Virus record (IMG/VR): IMGVR_UViG_2711768059_000015
Direction: 5' to 3' (one strand)
Origin: a virus
Lineage: Duplodnaviria > Heunggongvirae > Uroviricota > Caudoviricetes
DNA: 30,972 nucleotides
Under the pieces are notes generated by a model, which was not told the origin of the DNA, ran no database searches, and saw only the letters and a list, made by a program, of their open reading frames with translations. Position 1 is the stretch's first letter. The number at the start of each line of letters is the position of its first letter. Position numbers and translations under genes: made by a program. This document shows positions 4,222 through 25,948 of this stretch, piece by piece.

Positions 4222-4406
4222 AATGTTTGTTCCTTTGCTGGTGGAATAATCGTGTAACCCGCTCTTTTTGCCATCCACAGAAATGTATCCATGCAACCAA
4301 CGAATTCATTATCCAACAGATGTTTTGAGTAAATTACTTCACCATTTTCAATGGTTAGCAACACTCTTACTTTTTTATGTGTTATGTTCTGTTGTTTTTC
4401 TTTCAT
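4218..4406 (-). CDS. Hypothetical small protein (62 aa), coupled to the downstream 193-aa gene
   Basis: ATG at 4406 with a GGGAGA RBS. Overlapping stop/start with the next gene. Confidence 0.5.
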   Translation of the reverse strand: MKEKQQNITHKKVRVLLTIENGEVIYSKHLLDNEFVGCMDTFLWMAKRAGYTIIPPAKEQTL

Positions 4407-4410
4407 TTAT

Positions 4411-4524
4411 TTATCTCCCATATGCTTTGCGCAAATACAGGTTGGCTATATGAAGATAAGAATCTCCATGTTGTGCAATGAGGCAGGCAGTTTTATACGA
4501 TGCCTTATTTTTCAGGAAAGCCAT
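4411..4524 (-). CDS. Possible small basic protein (37 aa)
   Basis: Not in track. ATG at 4524 with an AGGAG RBS 8 nt upstream; stop at 4411-4413. Product MAFLKNKASYKTACLIAQHGDSYLHIANLYLRKAYGR. Could equally be an untranslated leader. Confidence 0.2.
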   Translation of the reverse strand: MAFLKNKASYKTACLIAQHGDSYLHIANLYLRKAYGR

Positions 4525-4610
4525 AACATAATCTCCTGCGAATAAAGGTTGCAACAATCCCCGGCGATAAAACCGTAATAAACATTCAGTGAATATTTAT
4601 TGTTATTGCG

Positions 4611-14010: not shown

Positions 14011-14754
14011 ATGAATGAAGCTTGTTCTGTTGTTTTTGTTCATTCCCCGTTTGTTGTGCTCTTTGAAGGAAAAGAGCTCTCTCTGGAAAGTGGTAGTGCA
14101 CTTCTTGTCAGGGGGGGAGCTGGATCGTTATTGCCCTTTTCGGAATGTTTTCGGCGAATAAGTCTCAGTGAATCGACAATTATCCGTTACCTGTTGTGTG
14201 GAGACGAAAAACAGGATGTAGTTTTAGTCCGGCAAATACCACGATATCTTTGCGTGAGTTTTCCCAAGGCAGAATTGATGGGCATCCTGATTGATTATCT
14301 TTGTGAGGAAAAGATTCATACGGACAATTTAGCGGAAATGCTTTCCTTTTCGTGTCTGGCGTTTTTCTCATCAGAGAAAATGTTTTCGTCGTTTCTGACC
14401 GCGTGTATTGGCAATATTAGTGACAGGCTTAGTGCATTGTTTCGTACGGACATTGCAGCAAACTGGACTCTGAGAGATGTGTCTTCGCGGTTATGTATCA
14501 GTGAAAGTTTGTTAAAAAAAAGACTGAAAGAAGAAGGCACCTGTTTCAGTGAGTTGTTGCTTACAGAGAGAATGAGAATGGCAGCAATGCTGTTGAATCA
14601 ATCTCGTTGCGCCATCAACAGAATCGCTGCTCAGTGTGGCTATAATTTTACATCTTATTTTATCAGCGTATTCAGGAGTTATTTTGGTGTTACACCGGCA
14701 GGTTACAGGATGGCTGCATTCAATGAGATGAGTTTAAGTGTTACTCAAGAATAA
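14011..14754 (+). CDS. AraC-family transcriptional regulator, AppY-like (cargo/moron gene)
   Basis: ATG at 14011. N-terminus MNEACSVVFV and C-terminal AraC HTH (SESLLKKRLKEEGTCFSELL...AAQCGYNFTSYFISVFRSYFGVTP) closely resemble the E. coli prophage-encoded regulator AppY as I recall it. Markedly AT-rich relative to its neighbours; flanked by terminators. Confidence 0.8.
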   Translation: MNEACSVVFVHSPFVVLFEGKELSLESGSALLVRGGAGSLLPFSECFRRISLSESTIIRYLLCGDEKQDVVLVRQIPRYLCVSFPKAELMGILIDYLCEEKIHTDNLAEMLSFSCLAFFSSEKMFSSFLTACIGNISDRLSALFRTDIAANWTLRDVSSRLCISESLLKKRLKEEGTCFSELLLTERMRMAAMLLNQSRCAINRIAAQCGYNFTSYFISVFRSYFGVTPAGYRMAAFNEMSLSVTQE

Positions 14755-14778
14755 TTGAATTTTGCACTCATTGAAAAC

Positions 14779-14804
14779 AGGCTCGCTGCGGCGGGCCTTT
14801 TTTA
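14779..14804 (+). terminator. Rho-independent terminator
   Basis: GC-rich hairpin (GGCTCGC...GCGGGCC) followed by TTTTTT. Confidence 0.5.
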
Positions 14805-14933
14805 TATCCGCGCCACGTCCGGCGCACATCACATCAGATAACACCACACAAAAGGTATCTGCGGGTGCCTTTGACGGGGTGTTGTTTTTTTACGGGCCGA
14901 CAGTGGCCCTTTTTTATTTACAGGAGAAAAAGT

Positions 14934-15326
14934 ATGTCTGAACCCTTGTCCGGTTCCGGTACGGCTGCGGCGCTCGGCGGGGCGACGGTATTCGGGCTGT
15001 TTACCGGAACGGATTTCGGGATTGTGTTTGGGGCGTTCGCTGGGGCGTTATTTGTGGCAACGATGCCGCAGGCGCTTTCAGCCTGGCGTGTGGCGGCGCA
15101 TTTTCTGGTGTCGTTTATCGTTGGCGTGCTGGGTGCGCATGTGCTGTCAGCCTGGATTGCATCAAAAACAGGTTATGACGGTACATCGGCGGATGCACTG
15201 TGTGCGGTGCTGGTGGCGGTGGTGTCGGTGAAGATTCTCTCGTTCATCCACCAGCAGGATATTGCATCGCTGGTGTCCGGCCTGTTCTCCCGCCTGCGGG
15301 GTGGAGGAGGCGGCAATGTTAAGTAA
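14934..15326 (+). CDS. Putative holin (multi-TM membrane protein)
   Basis: ATG at 14934 with AGGAGA RBS. Gly/Ala-rich hydrophobic helices with a charged C-terminus. First gene of a cassette ending in an endolysin. Confidence 0.6.
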   Translation: MSEPLSGSGTAAALGGATVFGLFTGTDFGIVFGAFAGALFVATMPQALSAWRVAAHFLVSFIVGVLGAHVLSAWIASKTGYDGTSADALCAVLVAVVSVKILSFIHQQDIASLVSGLFSRLRGGGGGNVK

Positions 15327-15591
15327 CCTTCCCGGATTGCTGAATGTGGCGTTATGCACGGTTATCGTGCTGACGCTCTTTTTTTATCGTCGTCGTGATT
15401 CCAGACATAAACCGCTGATGTCATGGCTGGCCTGGTTGCTGATGCTGCTGTATGCCTTTGCGCCCCTCAGCTATCTGTGTGGTCGCCCGTTAGCAACGGG
15501 CTGGCTGGAAGTGTTTTTTAACCTGCTGTTCTGCGTGCTGGTGATACGCGCACGCGGGAACGTCACAAAAATCTTTCCATTGTTGAGGTGA
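15316..15591 (+). CDS. Second small membrane protein of the lysis cassette (holin/antiholin-like)
   Basis: ATG at 15316, overlapping the holin 3' end. Two or three hydrophobic helices. Immediately precedes the endolysin. Confidence 0.5.
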   Translation: MLSNLPGLLNVALCTVIVLTLFFYRRRDSRHKPLMSWLAWLLMLLYAFAPLSYLCGRPLATGWLEVFFNLLFCVLVIRARGNVTKIFPLLR

Positions 15592-15593
15592 AT

Positions 15594-15971
15594 ATGTCGG
15601 GTAAATTCAGATTCAGTCGTCGCAGCGAAAAGAATCTGGAGGGCGTTAAACCACAGCTGGTTGCTGTCGTTCGCCGTGCGCTGGAGCTGACGGAGGTTGA
15701 TTTCGGTATTACGGAAGGGCTGCGCACGAAAGAACGCCAGAAACAGCTGGTCGCGGAAGGGAAAAGCCAGACCATGAACAGCCGCCACCTGACCGGTGAT
15801 GCGGTGGATGTTGTTGCCTGGGTTGGCAGCCAGGTGTCATGGGACTTGCCTCTGTATGAGAAAATAGCGCAGGCATTTAAGCAGGCTGCCGCAGAGCTGA
15901 ATACCCCCATCGAATGGGGCGGTGAGTGGCGGTCATTAAAGGATGGGCCTCACTTTCAGTTGAAACGATAA
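15594..15971 (+). CDS. Endolysin, peptidase M15-type (L-alanyl-D-glutamate peptidase-like)
   Basis: About 125 aa. His and Asp residues in the SRHLTGDAVDV segment and a C-terminal WGGEW motif fit small zinc peptidase endolysins. Confidence 0.75.
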   Translation: MSGKFRFSRRSEKNLEGVKPQLVAVVRRALELTEVDFGITEGLRTKERQKQLVAEGKSQTMNSRHLTGDAVDVVAWVGSQVSWDLPLYEKIAQAFKQAAAELNTPIEWGGEWRSLKDGPHFQLKR

Positions 15972-15978
15972 ATAAAGC

Positions 15979-16016
15979 AAAGCCCCGGTTGTTGGAGCAA
16001 TCGGGGCTTTGTGTTT
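15979..16016 (+). terminator. Possible terminator or stem-loop after the endolysin
   Basis: AGCCCCG-N14-CGGGGCT hairpin followed by a T-rich tract. Confidence 0.4.
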
Positions 16017-16052
16017 ATGGATTCATTTTGTGAATGCGCATGGGGATCATTC

Positions 16053-16250
16053 ATGCCAGTAAAGCCTAACACGACGAAAGATAAATTTGGAGATGATCTG
16101 ATGATAAAAGCAGAAACCACCCCGCAGGGGGCTGATGATGCCGCAAAAATCATCGCGGTATGCCGGGGCATCAGACATATACTGACGCCAGTTGCATGGA
16201 TTATTTGTACTGCACTGGTTGCATACACAACAATTTATTTAAACAGATGA
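16053..16250 (+). CDS. Small protein with C-terminal TM helix (65 aa; alternative start 16101)
   Basis: Two candidate starts with GGGGA or GGAG RBS. C-terminal hydrophobic helix. Stop overlaps the next small ORF (ATGA). Confidence 0.3.
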   Translation: MPVKPNTTKDKFGDDLMIKAETTPQGADDAAKIIAVCRGIRHILTPVAWIICTALVAYTTIYLNR

Positions 16251-16333
16251 GTGCTGATTTTATTCGGGCAACGGCCTTTGCAATCCGCCTTGTGGCGGTC
16301 GCTGTTCTGATTTGGGCTGTGCGTTGGTGGTGA
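16247..16333 (+). CDS. Possible 28-aa hydrophobic peptide
   Basis: Not in track. MSADFIRATAFAIRLVAVAVLIWAVRWW. Coupled by ATGA overlap upstream and a 1-nt gap to the next gene. Confidence 0.25.
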   Translation: MSADFIRATAFAIRLVAVAVLIWAVRWW

Positions 16334-16334
16334 T

Positions 16335-16517
16335 ATGACGCGAAAACACTGGACACACAGAATGCCGCGAACGGCGGTGAAATGGGCACTGGTAGCGATA
16401 CTGGTGCCTTTTTTCCTGGTGGGCTGCGTCAGCCTGGATAAGGCGCGCCAGCTTTTCGATACAGCTTCTCAGGTCTGTGAAATTGTTGATAGTGTCCGGC
16501 AGTGTATGCAGAACTGA
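16335..16517 (+). CDS. Small lipoprotein (60 aa), candidate outer-membrane spanin-like lysis component
   Basis: Signal peptide with lipobox (FLVGC). Short mature domain with three Cys. Located after the endolysin. Confidence 0.4.
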   Translation: MTRKHWTHRMPRTAVKWALVAILVPFFLVGCVSLDKARQLFDTASQVCEIVDSVRQCMQN

Positions 16518-16559
16518 CCGACGGTGAGAGCAGAATATTTTTTAGAGGAGCGAAATTCT

Positions 16560-16910
16560 ATGCCATCACAAATCCCTCGTGCATGCCGTAAGCGAGGCTG
16601 TGCAGGCACAACGACGGACAGTTCGGGCTACTGCGATAAGCATCGCGGCGAAGGTTGGACACAACATCAACGCGGACTGAGCCGCCACCAGCGTGGCTAT
16701 GGCTCGAAATGGGATGCCATACGTGCGCGCATACTGAAGCGTGATAATCATTTGTGTCAGAACTGCCTGCGCAATGGGAGAGCCGTTGAAGCCAGAACTG
16801 TGGACCACATCATTCCGAAAGCGCATGGCGGTACGGATGCAGACGGTAATCTGCAGAGCCTGTGCTGGCCATGCCACAAGGAGAAAACAGCGCGTGAACG
16901 CATCAACTGA
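16560..16910 (+). CDS. HNH endonuclease (packaging-associated)
   Basis: ATG at 16560 with GAGGAG RBS. Cys-rich zinc-binding motifs and an HNH core (DHIIPKAHGG...N...LCWPCH). Directly upstream of the terminase small subunit, as in HK97-like cos phages. Confidence 0.85.
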   Translation: MPSQIPRACRKRGCAGTTTDSSGYCDKHRGEGWTQHQRGLSRHQRGYGSKWDAIRARILKRDNHLCQNCLRNGRAVEARTVDHIIPKAHGGTDADGNLQSLCWPCHKEKTARERIN

Positions 16911-17058
16911 TAATCGTTCTCATCTGTAAGGGAGGGGCGGGTCAAATCTCTGCAACCCTGGCTGCTCAGTACCGCCGCCTGACCCTTCCTCACATCGCCG
17001 CAGGTTCGAAAACTTTTTTTTGGAAATGTGAACAAACGATTGATAGGTAAGACCGATT

Positions 17059-17541
17059 ATGTCAGGACCTCCGAAAACCCCGCCACGCCTGCATTTGATA
17101 CGAGGCAACCCCTCAAAGCGTCCCGTTAAAGACCACAAAAAAACCGCTAAAAAGGATGAAAAAGGTCTTCCTAAAATTCCGCAGCATTTAGGGGCTCAGG
17201 GGAAGTACTGGTTCAGGCGAATGGCGGAAGAGCTGAATGCGGAAGGGATCATTTCTCAGCTTGATGCACGTGCGCTCGAGTTGCTGGTGGAAGCCTACAC
17301 CGAATATCGGCATCACTGCGAAACACTCGATGTTGAGGGGTATACTTACCGCACGGAAACGCAGAGCGGTGATGTACTGATTAAGGCGCACCCCGCGGCG
17401 GCAATGAAAGCGGATGCCTGGAAGCGGATCCGGGCAATGCTTGCAGAGTTTGGTATGTCACCGGCAAGCCGGGCTAAAGTAAATATCGCCGGACCGGATG
17501 ATGTTGATCCGCTGGCGGAGCTTTTAAAAGCGAGAGACTGA
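17059..17541 (+). CDS. terS: Terminase small subunit (P27-type)
   Basis: 160 aa with a basic N-terminus and a pattern typical of P27-family small terminase subunits. Immediately upstream of the large subunit. Confidence 0.8.
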   Translation: MSGPPKTPPRLHLIRGNPSKRPVKDHKKTAKKDEKGLPKIPQHLGAQGKYWFRRMAEELNAEGIISQLDARALELLVEAYTEYRHHCETLDVEGYTYRTETQSGDVLIKAHPAAAMKADAWKRIRAMLAEFGMSPASRAKVNIAGPDDVDPLAELLKARD

Positions 17542-19492: not shown

Positions 19493-20733
19493 TGTTTTTC
19501 CAGGGGCTTTTTCAACGTAAAAATAATACCCCCGTCACAACGCCCGGGATGCTTGCGGAAGAACTTGGGTTGTCATACGACACCTATACCGGAAAGCGGA
19601 TCAGCAGTCAGCGGGCCATGCGGCTGACGGCGGTGTATTCCTGCGTCAGGGTGCTGGCGGAGTCTGTTGGTATGCTGCCCTGCAGCCTCTACAAAATCAC
19701 CGGCACTCTTAAAACACGGGCAGTGGATGAACGACTGCATAAACTGATTTCGGCAAAACCCAATGGCTACATGACACCGCAGGAATTCTGGGAGCTGGTT
19801 ATCGTCTGCCTGTGTCTGCGGGGTAATTTTTACGCTTACAAGGTGAAGGCGCTGGGAGAAGTGGTGGAGCTTCTTCCTATAGATCCGGGATGTGTGGAGC
19901 CGAAGCTGAACTGTCAGTGGCAGCCGGTTTATCAGGTGACATTTCCGGATGGTTCTGTGGATGTGCTGACTCAGGATGAAATCTGGCATGTGCGTACTCT
20001 GACGCTGGACGGACTGGTCGGGCTGAATCCCATTGCGTATGCGCGTGAGGCCATTTCACTGGCAGCGGCAACCGAGGAGCACGGTGCCAGGTTGTTTGGC
20101 AACGGTGCAGTGACATCCGGTGTGTTGCGTACGGATCAACAACTTTCTGATCAGGCTTATGCGCGTATCAAAAAGGATTTTGAGGAACGGCATGTCGGGC
20201 TGGGAAATTCTCATCGTCCGATGATTCTGGAAATGGGGCTGGACTGGAAAACGGTGGCACTGAATGCCGAGGACAGCCAGTTCCTGGAAACCCGCAAGTT
20301 TCAGCTGGAAGAAATCTGTCGCCTGTTCCGCGTGCCGCTGCATATGGTGCAGAACACCGATCGCGCCACCTTCAACAATATTGAAGAGCTGGGGCTTGGT
20401 TTCATTAACTATTCCCTTGTGCCGTATCTGACCCGTATTGAGCAACGGATCAATACAGGGCTGGTCAGGGAGAGCAAGCAGGGGAAGTTTTACGCCAAAT
20501 TTAATGCCGGAGCATTGTTGCGTGGCGACATGAAATCCCGCTTTGAAGCGTATGCCACGGGGATCAACTGGGGGATTTATTCCCCTAATGACTGCCGTGA
20601 TCTGGAAGATATGAATCCCAGACCGGGTGGTGATGTGTATCTGACACCGATGAACATGACCACCAGTCCCTCTGCTGGCGATGACAACGGTAAGAAAAAG
20701 GAGAGTGGAGATGCAGACAAAACAGCGTCTTGA
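19492..20733 (+). CDS. Portal protein, HK97 family
   Basis: 413 aa. GGAGGTGAG RBS. Position after the terminase and before the prohead protease. Confidence 0.9.
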   Translation: MFFQGLFQRKNNTPVTTPGMLAEELGLSYDTYTGKRISSQRAMRLTAVYSCVRVLAESVGMLPCSLYKITGTLKTRAVDERLHKLISAKPNGYMTPQEFWELVIVCLCLRGNFYAYKVKALGEVVELLPIDPGCVEPKLNCQWQPVYQVTFPDGSVDVLTQDEIWHVRTLTLDGLVGLNPIAYAREAISLAAATEEHGARLFGNGAVTSGVLRTDQQLSDQAYARIKKDFEERHVGLGNSHRPMILEMGLDWKTVALNAEDSQFLETRKFQLEEICRLFRVPLHMVQNTDRATFNNIEELGLGFINYSLVPYLTRIEQRINTGLVRESKQGKFYAKFNAGALLRGDMKSRFEAYATGINWGIYSPNDCRDLEDMNPRPGGDVYLTPMNMTTSPSAGDDNGKKKESGDADKTAS

Positions 20734-21361
20734 TATACCGCTGAACCTGAAATCCGTCAGTGATTCCGGGGAATTTGAAGGTTACGGTTCTGTTTTTGGT
20801 GTTAAGGACAGCCACGATGATGTGGTGGTCCCCGGTGCCTTTACCACAACACTCCAGAAATGGAGCGAAAAAAAGGCGCTGCCTGCGTTGCTCTGGCAGC
20901 ACCGCATGGATGAGCCCATCGGTGTGTACACCGAAATGAAAGAAGATGATGTCGGGCTTTATGTCAGGGGGCGATTACTCGTTGATGATGATCCCCTGGC
21001 AAAACGTGCACATGCCCATATGAAGGCCGGTTCTTTAACCGGCCTTTCTATTGGCTACATCCTGAAAGACTGGGAGTACGACCGTGAAAAAGGGGTATTC
21101 CTGCTGAAAGAGATCGACTTGTGGGAGGTCAGTCTGGTGACGTTTCCTTCCAATGATGAGGCACGCATCAGCGATGTGAAAAATGCGCTGGCGCGTGGGG
21201 AGATCCCTGATCAGAAAATTATTGAGCGAGTCCTGCGCGATGTTGGACTCTCGCGAACCCAGGCCAAAGCATTCATGGCCGGGGGATATGGCGCTTTATC
21301 CCTGCGTGATGCTGAGGATGTGGATGCCGCACTGAATGCACTGAAAAATCTTAAATTTTAA
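20711..21361 (+). CDS. Prohead maturation protease, HK97 family (S78/U35)
   Basis: ATG at 20711 with AAAAGGAGAG RBS. About 216 aa, positioned between the portal and the major capsid gene. Confidence 0.85.
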   Translation: MQTKQRLDIPLNLKSVSDSGEFEGYGSVFGVKDSHDDVVVPGAFTTTLQKWSEKKALPALLWQHRMDEPIGVYTEMKEDDVGLYVRGRLLVDDDPLAKRAHAHMKAGSLTGLSIGYILKDWEYDREKGVFLLKEIDLWEVSLVTFPSNDEARISDVKNALARGEIPDQKIIERVLRDVGLSRTQAKAFMAGGYGALSLRDAEDVDAALNALKNLKF

Positions 21362-25606: not shown

Positions 25607-25948
25607 ATGAGAAAATCAGTGGTGACATTAGCTTGTTTGTTTTTTATTAGTGCATGTAAGCCATCAGATAATTATGTTATTTCTTTAGGGGAAAACTTAG
25701 TTAAAGATAAGCTTATTGATCCTGATAGTGCAAAATTTAATTCTTTTTTTCATAAGTCAGGTGATTTATATGGTTATGTTTGTGGTGATGTTAATTCAAA
25801 AAACACGTTTGGTGGATATACAGGGAAAAAGCCATATTTTGTTTATTTGGAAGTTGTGGATGGAAAAGTTAAGAGTCATGGGACTGTAACAATTGTTAAT
25901 GATCATGATCCAAGCAGTATGGAAAAATATAAGTTGTTTTGCCAATAA
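25607..25948 (+). CDS. AT-rich lipoprotein moron inserted between the G/T chaperones and the tape measure gene
   Basis: ATG at 25607 with AGGAGG RBS. Signal peptide with lipobox (FISAC). About 113 aa. Strongly AT-rich against GC-rich neighbours. Followed by its own terminator. Confidence 0.7.
   Translation: MRKSVVTLACLFFISACKPSDNYVISLGENLVKDKLIDPDSAKFNSFFHKSGDLYGYVCGDVNSKNTFGGYTGKKPYFVYLEVVDGKVKSHGTVTIVNDHDPSSMEKYKLFCQ

Follow-up and report, generated by a model that had tools for sequence, protein, structure and literature searches.

A partner-less lipoprotein gene that alternates with Rz/Rz1 as a candidate spanin substitute in phiP27-like prophages

How phages without spanins pass the outer membrane of their hosts is an open question, which concerns roughly 13-15% of the phages of Gram-negative hosts. 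To our knowledge, the sole alternative to spanins described so far is the cationic disruptin of phage phiKT. The present analysis deals with the lysis cassette of a prophage of Escherichia coli, available as IMG/VR record IMGVR_UViG_2711768059_000015 (Caudoviricetes; 30,972 nucleotides (nt), the whole stretch being called the window hereafter), in which holin and endolysin genes are followed by three small open reading frames (ORFs), named here ORF-A, ORF-B, and ORF-C. It is ORF-C, a prolipoprotein of 60 amino acids (aa), and not ORF-A or ORF-B, that constitutes a plausible stand-in for the missing spanin. The phiP27 homologue of ORF-C was already called an outer-membrane spanin subunit (o-spanin) in 2018; the new element is that the lipoprotein is found without an inner-membrane partner (i-spanin) in every lineage, which makes it a candidate for a distinct class of disruptor.

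Several described systems offer points of comparison. With lambda Rz/Rz1, ORF-C has in common that it is a small lipoprotein, with a residue other than Asp at position +2 and conserved, predicted periplasmic cysteines, located after the endolysin at a junction where the two are interchangeable. It differs by having no i-spanin, by a 30-residue predicted helix that is not proline-rich, and by the lack of similarity to Rz1. The unimolecular spanin gp11 of phage T1 resembles ORF-C in bearing a lipoprotein signal at its N-terminus and in being the product of one gene, in a lysis cassette devoid of Rz, but ORF-C has no C-terminal transmembrane (TM) segment, is under half the length, and would be unable to bridge the membranes. 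Bacteriocin release proteins (colicin lysis proteins) and entericidin B are prolipoproteins of ~45-60 aa, the mature lipopeptide of which (~27-33 residues) permeabilises or lyses the envelope; the stable signal peptides of the bacteriocin release proteins are functionally important, and contribute to envelope damage. ORF-C is similar to bacteriocin release proteins in its size, lipoprotein nature, and unusually conserved signal peptide, while differing from them and from entericidin in being phage-borne, behind a holin and an endolysin. This is a resemblance only, as no Pfam match at E <=0.1 and no NCBIfam match linked ORF-C to colicin lysis proteins or entericidins, the models of which were assumed to be within the Pfam-A scan. 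Finally, the phiKT disruptin gp28 is described as a cationic, antimicrobial-peptide-like product, a very small amphipathic helix proposed to take the place of the spanin in a spanin-less phage and to act on the outer membrane alone (bioRxiv 10.1101/515445). ORF-C would share the amphipathic helix and the place of a spanin, but is lipobox-anchored, cysteine-containing, and close to neutral (charge -1 to +2), as opposed to the cationic gp28 described there.

The census of spanins in 677 phages (Kongari et al. 2018, PMC6139136) reported combined periplasmic lengths of 62-300 residues, and 91 phages (~13%) without an identifiable spanin. In phiP27, the homologue of ORF-C (20706-20861) was designated as o-spanin, with 30 periplasmic residues (83% helix by Jpred), and an i-spanin was placed at 20348-20542. 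The phage was classed as a 'separated' two-component spanin, a singleton, its 62 periplasmic residues being the shortest of all, and the discussion of the census allows for unconventional i-spanin topologies. The published i-spanin (4287-4481 on the + strand of L001, the phiP27 locus in our set) starts at a TTG, counts 64 aa, and belongs to no PHROG family. It lies antisense to a 90-aa ORF (4271-4543, - strand) with a full-length match to phrog_36812 (E 5e-20). The only other locus with the phiP27-type insert, L049, has a stop in the i-spanin frame, while the ORF antisense to it remains whole (46% identity); of the 83 loci in which ORF-C relatives were found, 81, window included, lack the insert. 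The published i-spanin is, judging from these sequences, probably a spurious antisense ORF, and phiP27 would most likely be a 'two-component spanin' lacking its i-spanin, with an o-spanin start set nine codons short. As for experiments on phiP27-type lysis genes, the literature yielded only this census and a holin-deletion study of Stx2e (Shiga toxin 2e) release, which is silent on spanins and lipoproteins.

The phiP27-type lysis cassette comprises four constant genes, namely those of two holin-family proteins, of a soluble endolysin (M15 in the window), and ORF-C. In the window, the cassette and its border are organized as follows:

14934-15326, + strand: holin 1, 130 aa, multi-TM (Pfam PF16931 Phage_holin_8, E 4.7e-23; phrog_198, holin)
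15316-15591, + strand: holin 2, 91 aa, three TM segments, 11-nt overlap with holin 1 (PF05449 Phage_holin_3_7, E 6e-22; phrog_217, holin)
15594-15971, + strand: M15 peptidase endolysin, 125 aa (phrog_465, endolysin, E 6.6e-73; PF13539 Peptidase_M15_4)
15977-16012, no strand assigned: hairpin 5' of ORF-A, 16-bp stem and 4-nt loop
16053-16250, + strand: ORF-A, 65 aa, with a C-terminal hydrophobic segment
16247-16333, + strand: ORF-B, 28 aa, single TM segment, ATGA overlap with ORF-A
16335-16517, + strand: ORF-C, 60-aa prolipoprotein, 1 nt past ORF-B, with lipobox LVGC and Cys31, Cys48, and Cys57
16384-16415, + strand: terminator-like hairpin and T-run within ORF-C, codons 17-27 (terminator scan, folding energy)
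16560-16910, + strand: HNH endonuclease (PF01844, E 2.4e-15; phrog_144)

The HNH gene is the first of the packaging module, and so forms the downstream border of the lysis cassette; the P27-family small terminase comes next. In the source genome, ORF-A, ORF-B, and ORF-C are all labelled as hypothetical proteins by PGAP. The first-pass annotation, made from the letters of the window, had pointed to three coupled small ORFs behind the endolysin in place of a canonical Rz/Rz1 pair, and they are indeed found there, with the ATGA overlap, the 1-nt gap, and the three cysteines of ORF-C. The lack of an Rz/Rz1 pair was borne out as well: the annotation of the entire prophage, int through tail fibre, lists no spanin, and a search for lipoboxes in all six frames of the 30,972 bases returned just ORF-C and an unrelated 113-aa lipoprotein of the tail region, and no Rz1.

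The same holds beyond the window. None of 105 ORF-C loci gave a tblastn match to Rz or Rz1, the exclusion of spanin families covering the flanks of ORF-C up to 6 kb on either side and one whole prophage. Between 2.6 kb upstream and 2.2 kb downstream of ORF-C, no + strand ORF combining an N-terminal TM segment with at least 45 further residues was conserved across the 105 loci. ORF-C is, thus, without an adjacent, overlapping, or embedding i-spanin gene, in the window as in these loci. With 30 mature residues and no partner, it falls below the 62-300 residues of the census, and because 30 residues correspond to ~45 Å as a helix, it would be unable to span the periplasm. Two further readings were discarded. 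ORF-B was not retained as a leftover N-terminal TM segment of Rz, since the Rz located downstream of ORF-B in one locus (L003) is full length and has a TM segment of its own, and neither holin was retained as an i-spanin surrogate, as neither has a periplasmic domain and ORF-C is also found with other holin types.

The relationship between ORF-C and Rz/Rz1 can be read at the junction itself. The sequence 5' of ORF-C in the window is shared with that 5' of Rz in L003 and in L107-L118, through ORF-B to ...CGTTGGTGGTGATATG, and the window and L003 diverge exactly at the start codon, after ...CGTTGGTGGTGAT-ATG. ORF-B sits 1 nt 5' of Rz in all of these loci, and its last codons (R-W-W-stop) are the ribosome-binding site of whichever gene comes next; GTTGGTGGTGAT also precedes ORF-C in Citrobacter, where there is no ORF-B. 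Each locus bearing ORF-B carries one of the two, ORF-C or Rz/Rz1, and none carries both. A common upstream sequence with divergence at the start codon is what alternative alleles at one locus look like in lambdoid mosaics, and ORF-C and Rz/Rz1 appear, from sequence comparison, as such alleles.

The genomic context of ORF-C was established on the 83 loci with relatives of this gene (80 from IMG/VR, plus Salmonella, Citrobacter, and Lelliottia genomes), 78 of which are informative, the remaining five being cut off upstream. An M15 or GH108 endolysin lies just 5' of ORF-C in all 78. The interval between the two genes contains nothing in 35 loci (gap of at most 14 nt), other small TM ORFs (of 57/37-aa and 47-aa types) in 37, ORF-A and ORF-B as in the window in three, the phiP27-type insert in two, and an Ant-like gene in one (Salmonella). 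In the minimal cassettes (gap of at most 14 nt), it holds just the GGTG Shine-Dalgarno sequence of ORF-C, and in 40 of the 78 loci a small TM gene abuts ORF-C upstream. One such neighbour, a 37-aa ORF-B-type protein (P0179), is listed in 4369 index blocks, and in all eight of the places shown for it the gene is between an M15 endolysin and ORF-C.

Divergent lineages show the same association. The ORF-C of Lelliottia (52% identity) comes after one holin and a GH108 endolysin, across a 4-nt gap. L131 has a Q antiterminator gene, followed by those of a lambda-S-type holin and an M15 endolysin and by ORF-C, and in the Mu-like locus L133, GemA, Mor, two holins, and a GH108 endolysin precede an ORF-C that overlaps the endolysin stop, followed by Mu-type terminase and portal genes. 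Overall, the holins of ORF-C lysis cassettes are of three types and the endolysins of two, and several virion modules are represented; the packaging modules beside them vary (lambda Nu1/A, P27 terminase, DUF1441). On its 3' side, ORF-C is bordered by the packaging module, by a gene of the phiP27 L33 type, or, as Rz/Rz1 is in lambda, by iss/bor in the opposite orientation (Bor/Iss adjoins ORF-C in L004). Since ORF-C stays with lysis cassettes even where the virion modules are unrelated, it is unlikely to have a tail- or receptor-linked role. For the same reason, namely that it tracks lysis cassettes over differing tail modules, a receptor-blocking lipoprotein of the Cor/Llp type was rejected. 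The cassette is matched in 339 of 5426 complete E. coli genomes and, among deposited phage genomes, is present in phiP27, phiSTEC1575-Stx2k, and GER2.

Two database records call for a separate remark. In Escherichia phage Rac-SA53 (L129, 3180-4955), LT-IIa enterotoxin genes come directly after a GH108 endolysin and the same pair of holins; neither ORF-C nor Rz/Rz1 is annotated there, and the toxin genes fill the slot of the outer-membrane disruptor. PP818812.1, deposited as 'Actinobacillus phage vB_Apl-pPE4' (hits H4 and H51), has ~90% nucleotide identity to the E. coli cassette described here, with ORF-C unannotated, and its assignment to Actinobacillus pleuropneumoniae as host seems questionable.

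All three small ORFs are genuine genes under purifying selection, and not chance frames. The test used was the summed pairwise nonsynonymous/synonymous ratio (pN/pS), compared between the true frame and the two shifted frames. For ORF-C (53 unique sequences), the ratio was 0.20 in frame versus 0.96 and 1.77 in the shifted frames, with 0.16 for the mature part; for ORF-B (nine sequences), 0.30 versus 1.10 and 1.62; and for the core of ORF-A (14 sequences, pS 0.61), 0.16 versus 1.7 and 2.1.

The start of ORF-C requires correction. In PGAP/RefSeq, it is set at an internal ATG (16362), giving 51 aa, and the 2018 census made the same choice for phiP27. We favour the 60-aa form starting at 16335 as the conserved one, because relatives have I, V, or T in place of the internal Met10 but retain Met1 and RKHWTHR, because a GGTG Shine-Dalgarno sequence is present 5-9 nt 5' of Met1 in every architecture, and because codons 1-17 appear under purifying selection (ratio 0.26). 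In the resulting protein, an unusually long and basic n-region (MTRKHWTHRMPRTAVKW) is followed by an h-region without variation in the family (ALVAILVPF) and by the lipobox LVGC, with Cys31 (16425-16427) as the predicted lipidated residue and Val at +2. Across the family, the +2 residue is V, A, T, S, or G, never Asp, as expected at the sequence level for sorting to the outer membrane. The mature part, CVSLDKARQLFDTASQVCEIVDSVRQCMQN, comprises 30 residues. Two further cysteines, Cys48 and Cys57 in the window, are spaced by 8-9 residues in the family and invariant in the full-length relatives aligned, down to ~50% identity (members from clustering at 50% included); if periplasmic, as predicted, they would be available for intermolecular disulfides.

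Structure prediction with AlphaFold2 returned one helix (residues 12-59), with a mean predicted local distance difference test score (pLDDT) of 67. The hydrophobic moment of the mature part is 0.35, with p ~0.04-0.05 against shuffles in three of four variants and 0.11 for the Lelliottia variant. Heptad a/d positions hold 7/8 hydrophobic residues of the mature protein, the net charge of which is about zero (-1 to +2), and the C-terminus (...DSVRQCMQN) is hydrophilic, with no second hydrophobic segment in the protein. ORF-C matches phrog_7528, of unknown function, with residues 1-60 aligned on the 60-position profile (E 1.4e-37). The family counts 132 clusters at 90% identity, all hypothetical, and ~18 representatives at 50%, from Enterobacteriaceae prophages only. 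A HMMER profile search against 1.84 billion representatives returned only 24 proteins, ~18 of them true relatives, which enlarged the family without connecting it to any known one; three long repetitive proteins (E ~3e-5) were treated as noise. The scans against Pfam at E <=0.1, NCBIfam, and PADLOC gave zero matches for ORF-A, ORF-B, and ORF-C, the PHROG matches were to families of unknown function only, and a profile search of PDB sequences with ORF-C yielded chance matches only (E >=0.04). An apparent natural in-frame fusion of ORF-B and ORF-C is also on record (protein P0005, 89 aa, six contigs, …VRWWCMTRKHW…), which is compatible with a 1-nt deletion at TGAtATG.

ORF-C contains a hairpin of its own (GGGCACTGGTAGCGATACTGGTGCC), made of a stem of 10-11 pairs with a GCGA loop, then T6 (T6ATT in many variants), with a folding energy (dG) of -21.6 kcal/mol and a z-score of -5.2. 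Its nucleotides are near-invariant over ~100 loci from Escherichia, Salmonella, Citrobacter, and Lelliottia. Among codons for identical amino acids, synonymous differences from Lelliottia number 1/9 in the hairpin (a loop change) versus 14/20 elsewhere, and those from Citrobacter, 1/9 versus 11/32. The Mu-like homologue is devoid of the hairpin, and a 7-bp remnant is found in L131; Mu is not known to use Q antitermination. The element resembles an intrinsic terminator that only an antiterminated polymerase would pass, and it may constitute a Q-dependent gate on ORF-C and the packaging genes.

ORF-A and ORF-B have a different history. ORF-A has a hydrophilic N-terminus and one C-terminal TM segment, as the first-pass annotation had suspected; topology prediction by the positive-inside rule puts the N-terminus inside, with almost nothing exposed to the periplasm. 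Its family (35 clusters, all hypothetical) is found in E. coli and Salmonella. ORF-B ends in RWW, matches phrog_4493 in its C-terminal TM segment (E 3.9e-6, profile positions 24-54 of 56) and phrog_3246 (E 4.7e-5), and, with a 57-aa relative that matches phrog_4493 at E 3.3e-23, is by sequence a short variant of the phrog_4493/3246/1115 small membrane proteins. Both genes also occur directly 5' of a complete Rz with embedded Rz1, in another cassette (class II holin, YdfR, rrrQ lysozyme). ORF-A relatives with 76-83% identity are located in the tail/baseplate cluster of other prophages, sometimes in the same prophage as ORF-C, ~20 kb apart, and may adjoin other small TM ORFs ending in RWW or RWR. 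In L120 (3835-4540) and L098 (3797-4198), this tail/baseplate region holds an array of small single-TM ORFs, in which the ORF-A homologue is accompanied by a 55-aa peptide and by two others, of 32/68 aa and 48 aa, that end in RWR or RWW (phrog_6632). Such arrays suggest that small-membrane-protein genes move as cassettes between lysis and tail regions.

In the window, the hairpin 5' of ORF-A (dG -31.1 kcal/mol, z -7.7, unmatched by any of 200 shuffles) is terminator-like, with a poor U-tract on the + strand and a T-rich tail on the - strand. Hairpins of like design, with another stem sequence, are found 5' of ORF-A homologues in unrelated contexts too, with better U-tracts in L097, L098, and L127, and the element is absent from minimal cassettes. 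As it accompanies ORF-A homologues in each context, it appears to belong to the ORF-A insertion, rather than to mark a regulatory break between the endolysin and a 'spanin'. No promoter-like site was found in 14700-17100, behind the hairpin included, and the Rfam matches in this interval, which fall on the hairpin, are sub-threshold (e.g., P22 sar, 21 bits for a gathering score of 43) and were rejected. The earlier suggestion of partly independent expression, based on this hairpin, consequently finds no support.

Phage morons are small genes inserted between conserved modules, and many of them have a promoter and a terminator to themselves. Because they are found before Rz/Rz1 and, for ORF-A relatives, in tail clusters, ORF-A and ORF-B are, as far as sequence comparison tells, moron-like mobile passengers, predicted to encode small inner-membrane proteins. 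They are like morons in being small membrane-protein genes in unrelated intergenic slots, hairpin-bounded, and dispensable for the surrounding module, but no promoter was detected, the hairpin is upstream and not downstream, and there is no homology to characterised morons. ORF-A, ORF-B, and the hairpin would then form a separately mobile insertion riding late transcription, which the cassette could do without.

The following scheme can be proposed for ORF-C, the localization, lytic role, and mechanism of which we infer from these features. Lipidation and cleavage by signal peptidase II would yield a mature form of 30 residues, a near-neutral amphipathic helix that carries the two conserved cysteines and is held by its lipid anchor in the outer membrane, at the inner leaflet. 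After holin triggering and the removal of peptidoglycan by the endolysin, ORF-C would breach the outer membrane, acting without an inner-membrane partner, and not as a two-component spanin across the periplasm; it is considered partner-less because no inner-membrane partner is found in any lineage examined. The lipid-anchored helix may oligomerise, or form disulfide-linked dimers, and so destabilise the outer membrane. That a solitary ORF-C lipopeptide performs the outer-membrane step of lysis is, in our judgment, evenly balanced between true and false. We lean somewhat against the broader proposal, offered tentatively, that ORF-C represents a third kind of disruptor beside spanins and cationic disruptins, partner-less and perhaps gated by the embedded terminator, and that it is used by thousands of prophages in E. 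coli, Salmonella, Citrobacter, and Lelliottia, Stx2e and Stx2k phages among them. If ORF-C does work alone, an outer-membrane-rupturing lipopeptide of 30 residues would be mechanistically new, and relevant to lysis tools and outer-membrane permeabilising agents. In E. coli, the best genetic system available, many prophages bear this cassette, among them Shiga-toxin phages, in which the release of the toxin is controlled by lysis, and ORF-C is a single gene of 183 bp.

Several points weigh against a lytic role for ORF-C on its own. Across the family, the role is read from sequence. The structure model is of low confidence (pLDDT 67), ORF-C has no similarity to known lysis proteins (Pfam, NCBIfam, PADLOC, PDB), and its PHROG is of 'unknown function'. 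Its position in the lysis cassette is suggestive only, as morons lodge there too (ORF-A and ORF-B here, LT-II toxin genes in Rac-SA53). The strong conservation of the signal peptide may in part reflect an RNA constraint from the hairpin, and the small TM gene that abuts ORF-C in 40/78 loci may provide it with an optional partner. Lastly, a neutral lipopeptide of 30 residues would have to rupture the outer membrane by a route that is so far hypothetical, and would have to be held in check until holin triggering.

Such a partner is at the core of one alternative, in which ORF-C is a true o-spanin belonging to a very short two-component spanin, with an unrecognised inner-membrane subunit (an ORF-B-type peptide, a holin, or a host protein). 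The hallmarks of o-spanins in ORF-C (lipobox, periplasmic cysteines, post-endolysin position) are consistent with it, as are the frequent abutting TM gene, the natural fusion P0005, and the 'separated' class to which Kongari et al. (2018) assigned phiP27, together with the unconventional i-spanin topologies they allow. We nevertheless judge it unlikely, since 35/78 loci and all three divergent lineages have neither an intervening gene nor an i-spanin-like ORF nearby. ORF-B-type peptides would expose only ~3 residues to the periplasm, and they are likewise found ahead of complete Rz/Rz1 pairs, for which they are superfluous; holin types, for their part, vary among ORF-C cassettes. Besides, a helix of ~45 Å would be too short to meet a partner without a periplasmic domain, and the published phiP27 i-spanin is probably spurious. 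Equally improbable, in our view, is that ORF-C is a late lipoprotein with another role, for example in lysis timing or extent, in receptor blocking or protection from debris, or in superinfection exclusion, in phages with no dedicated outer-membrane protein. Some 13% of surveyed phages (91/677) do lack an identifiable spanin, non-lytic small phage lipoproteins exist (e.g., Bor/Iss, which adjoins ORF-C in L004), the end of the lysis cassette is a known moron site, and ORF-C has no homology to any lysis protein. However, unlike morons expressed in lysogens, ORF-C is on the late strand, overlapping the endolysin stop or 4-14 nt from it, with no promoter-like site. It tracks lysis cassettes, and not tail or receptor-binding modules, in lambdoid, phiP27-like, and Mu-like phages, and alternates with Rz/Rz1 at one junction, the two never co-occurring.

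The first-pass annotation went further than ORF-C alone, and took ORF-A, ORF-B, and ORF-C together for an atypical spanin equivalent or a lysis-timing module, partly independently expressed behind the hairpin. Tight packing on the late strand after the endolysin, purifying selection on all three genes, and the fact that an RWW-ending TM peptide usually comes next after ORF-A speak for such a unit. Nevertheless, the trio is present in just 3/83 loci, and ORF-C directly follows the endolysin in 35 of the 78 informative ones; conversely, ORF-A and ORF-B are found with Rz/Rz1 and without ORF-C, and ORF-A in tail clusters without ORF-C and, in L098, without an ORF-B-type gene as well. With no promoter-like site, and a hairpin that is part of the ORF-A module, the three-gene unit is largely refuted by these comparative data, and we hold it to be very improbable. 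What remains credible of the spanin equivalent is the lipoprotein ORF-C, given its post-endolysin position, its exchange with Rz/Rz1, and the o-spanin call of 2018. A lysis-timing role for ORF-A and ORF-B in the context of the cassette is possible, but unsupported.

At 100% identity, the window matches the E. coli E21845/O/A chromosome (NZ_CP076272.1, reverse strand), in which the lambdoid, phiP27-like prophage is integrated beside mlrA. Its genes are arranged in the order int/xis, early genes, Q antiterminator, AraC-family gene, lysis cassette, HNH, P27-family terminase, HK97-type head, and lambda-like tail, and the nearest deposited phage is the Stx2e phage phiP27, with ~89% identity across the cassette. 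The AraC-family regulator gene (phrog_1450; 14011-14754, + strand) lies between Q and the holin, where Stx phages have stx. Two terminator-like hairpins with T-runs (14779-14808 and 14894-14919, + strand) come after it, just 5' of the ribosome-binding site of the holin. The 113-aa lipoprotein gene of the tail region (25607-25948, + strand), with the signal MRKSVVTLACLFFISAC, belongs to phrog_2320, of unknown function; it is located between the gene of tail assembly protein T and that of the tape measure protein, and has a moron-like appearance.

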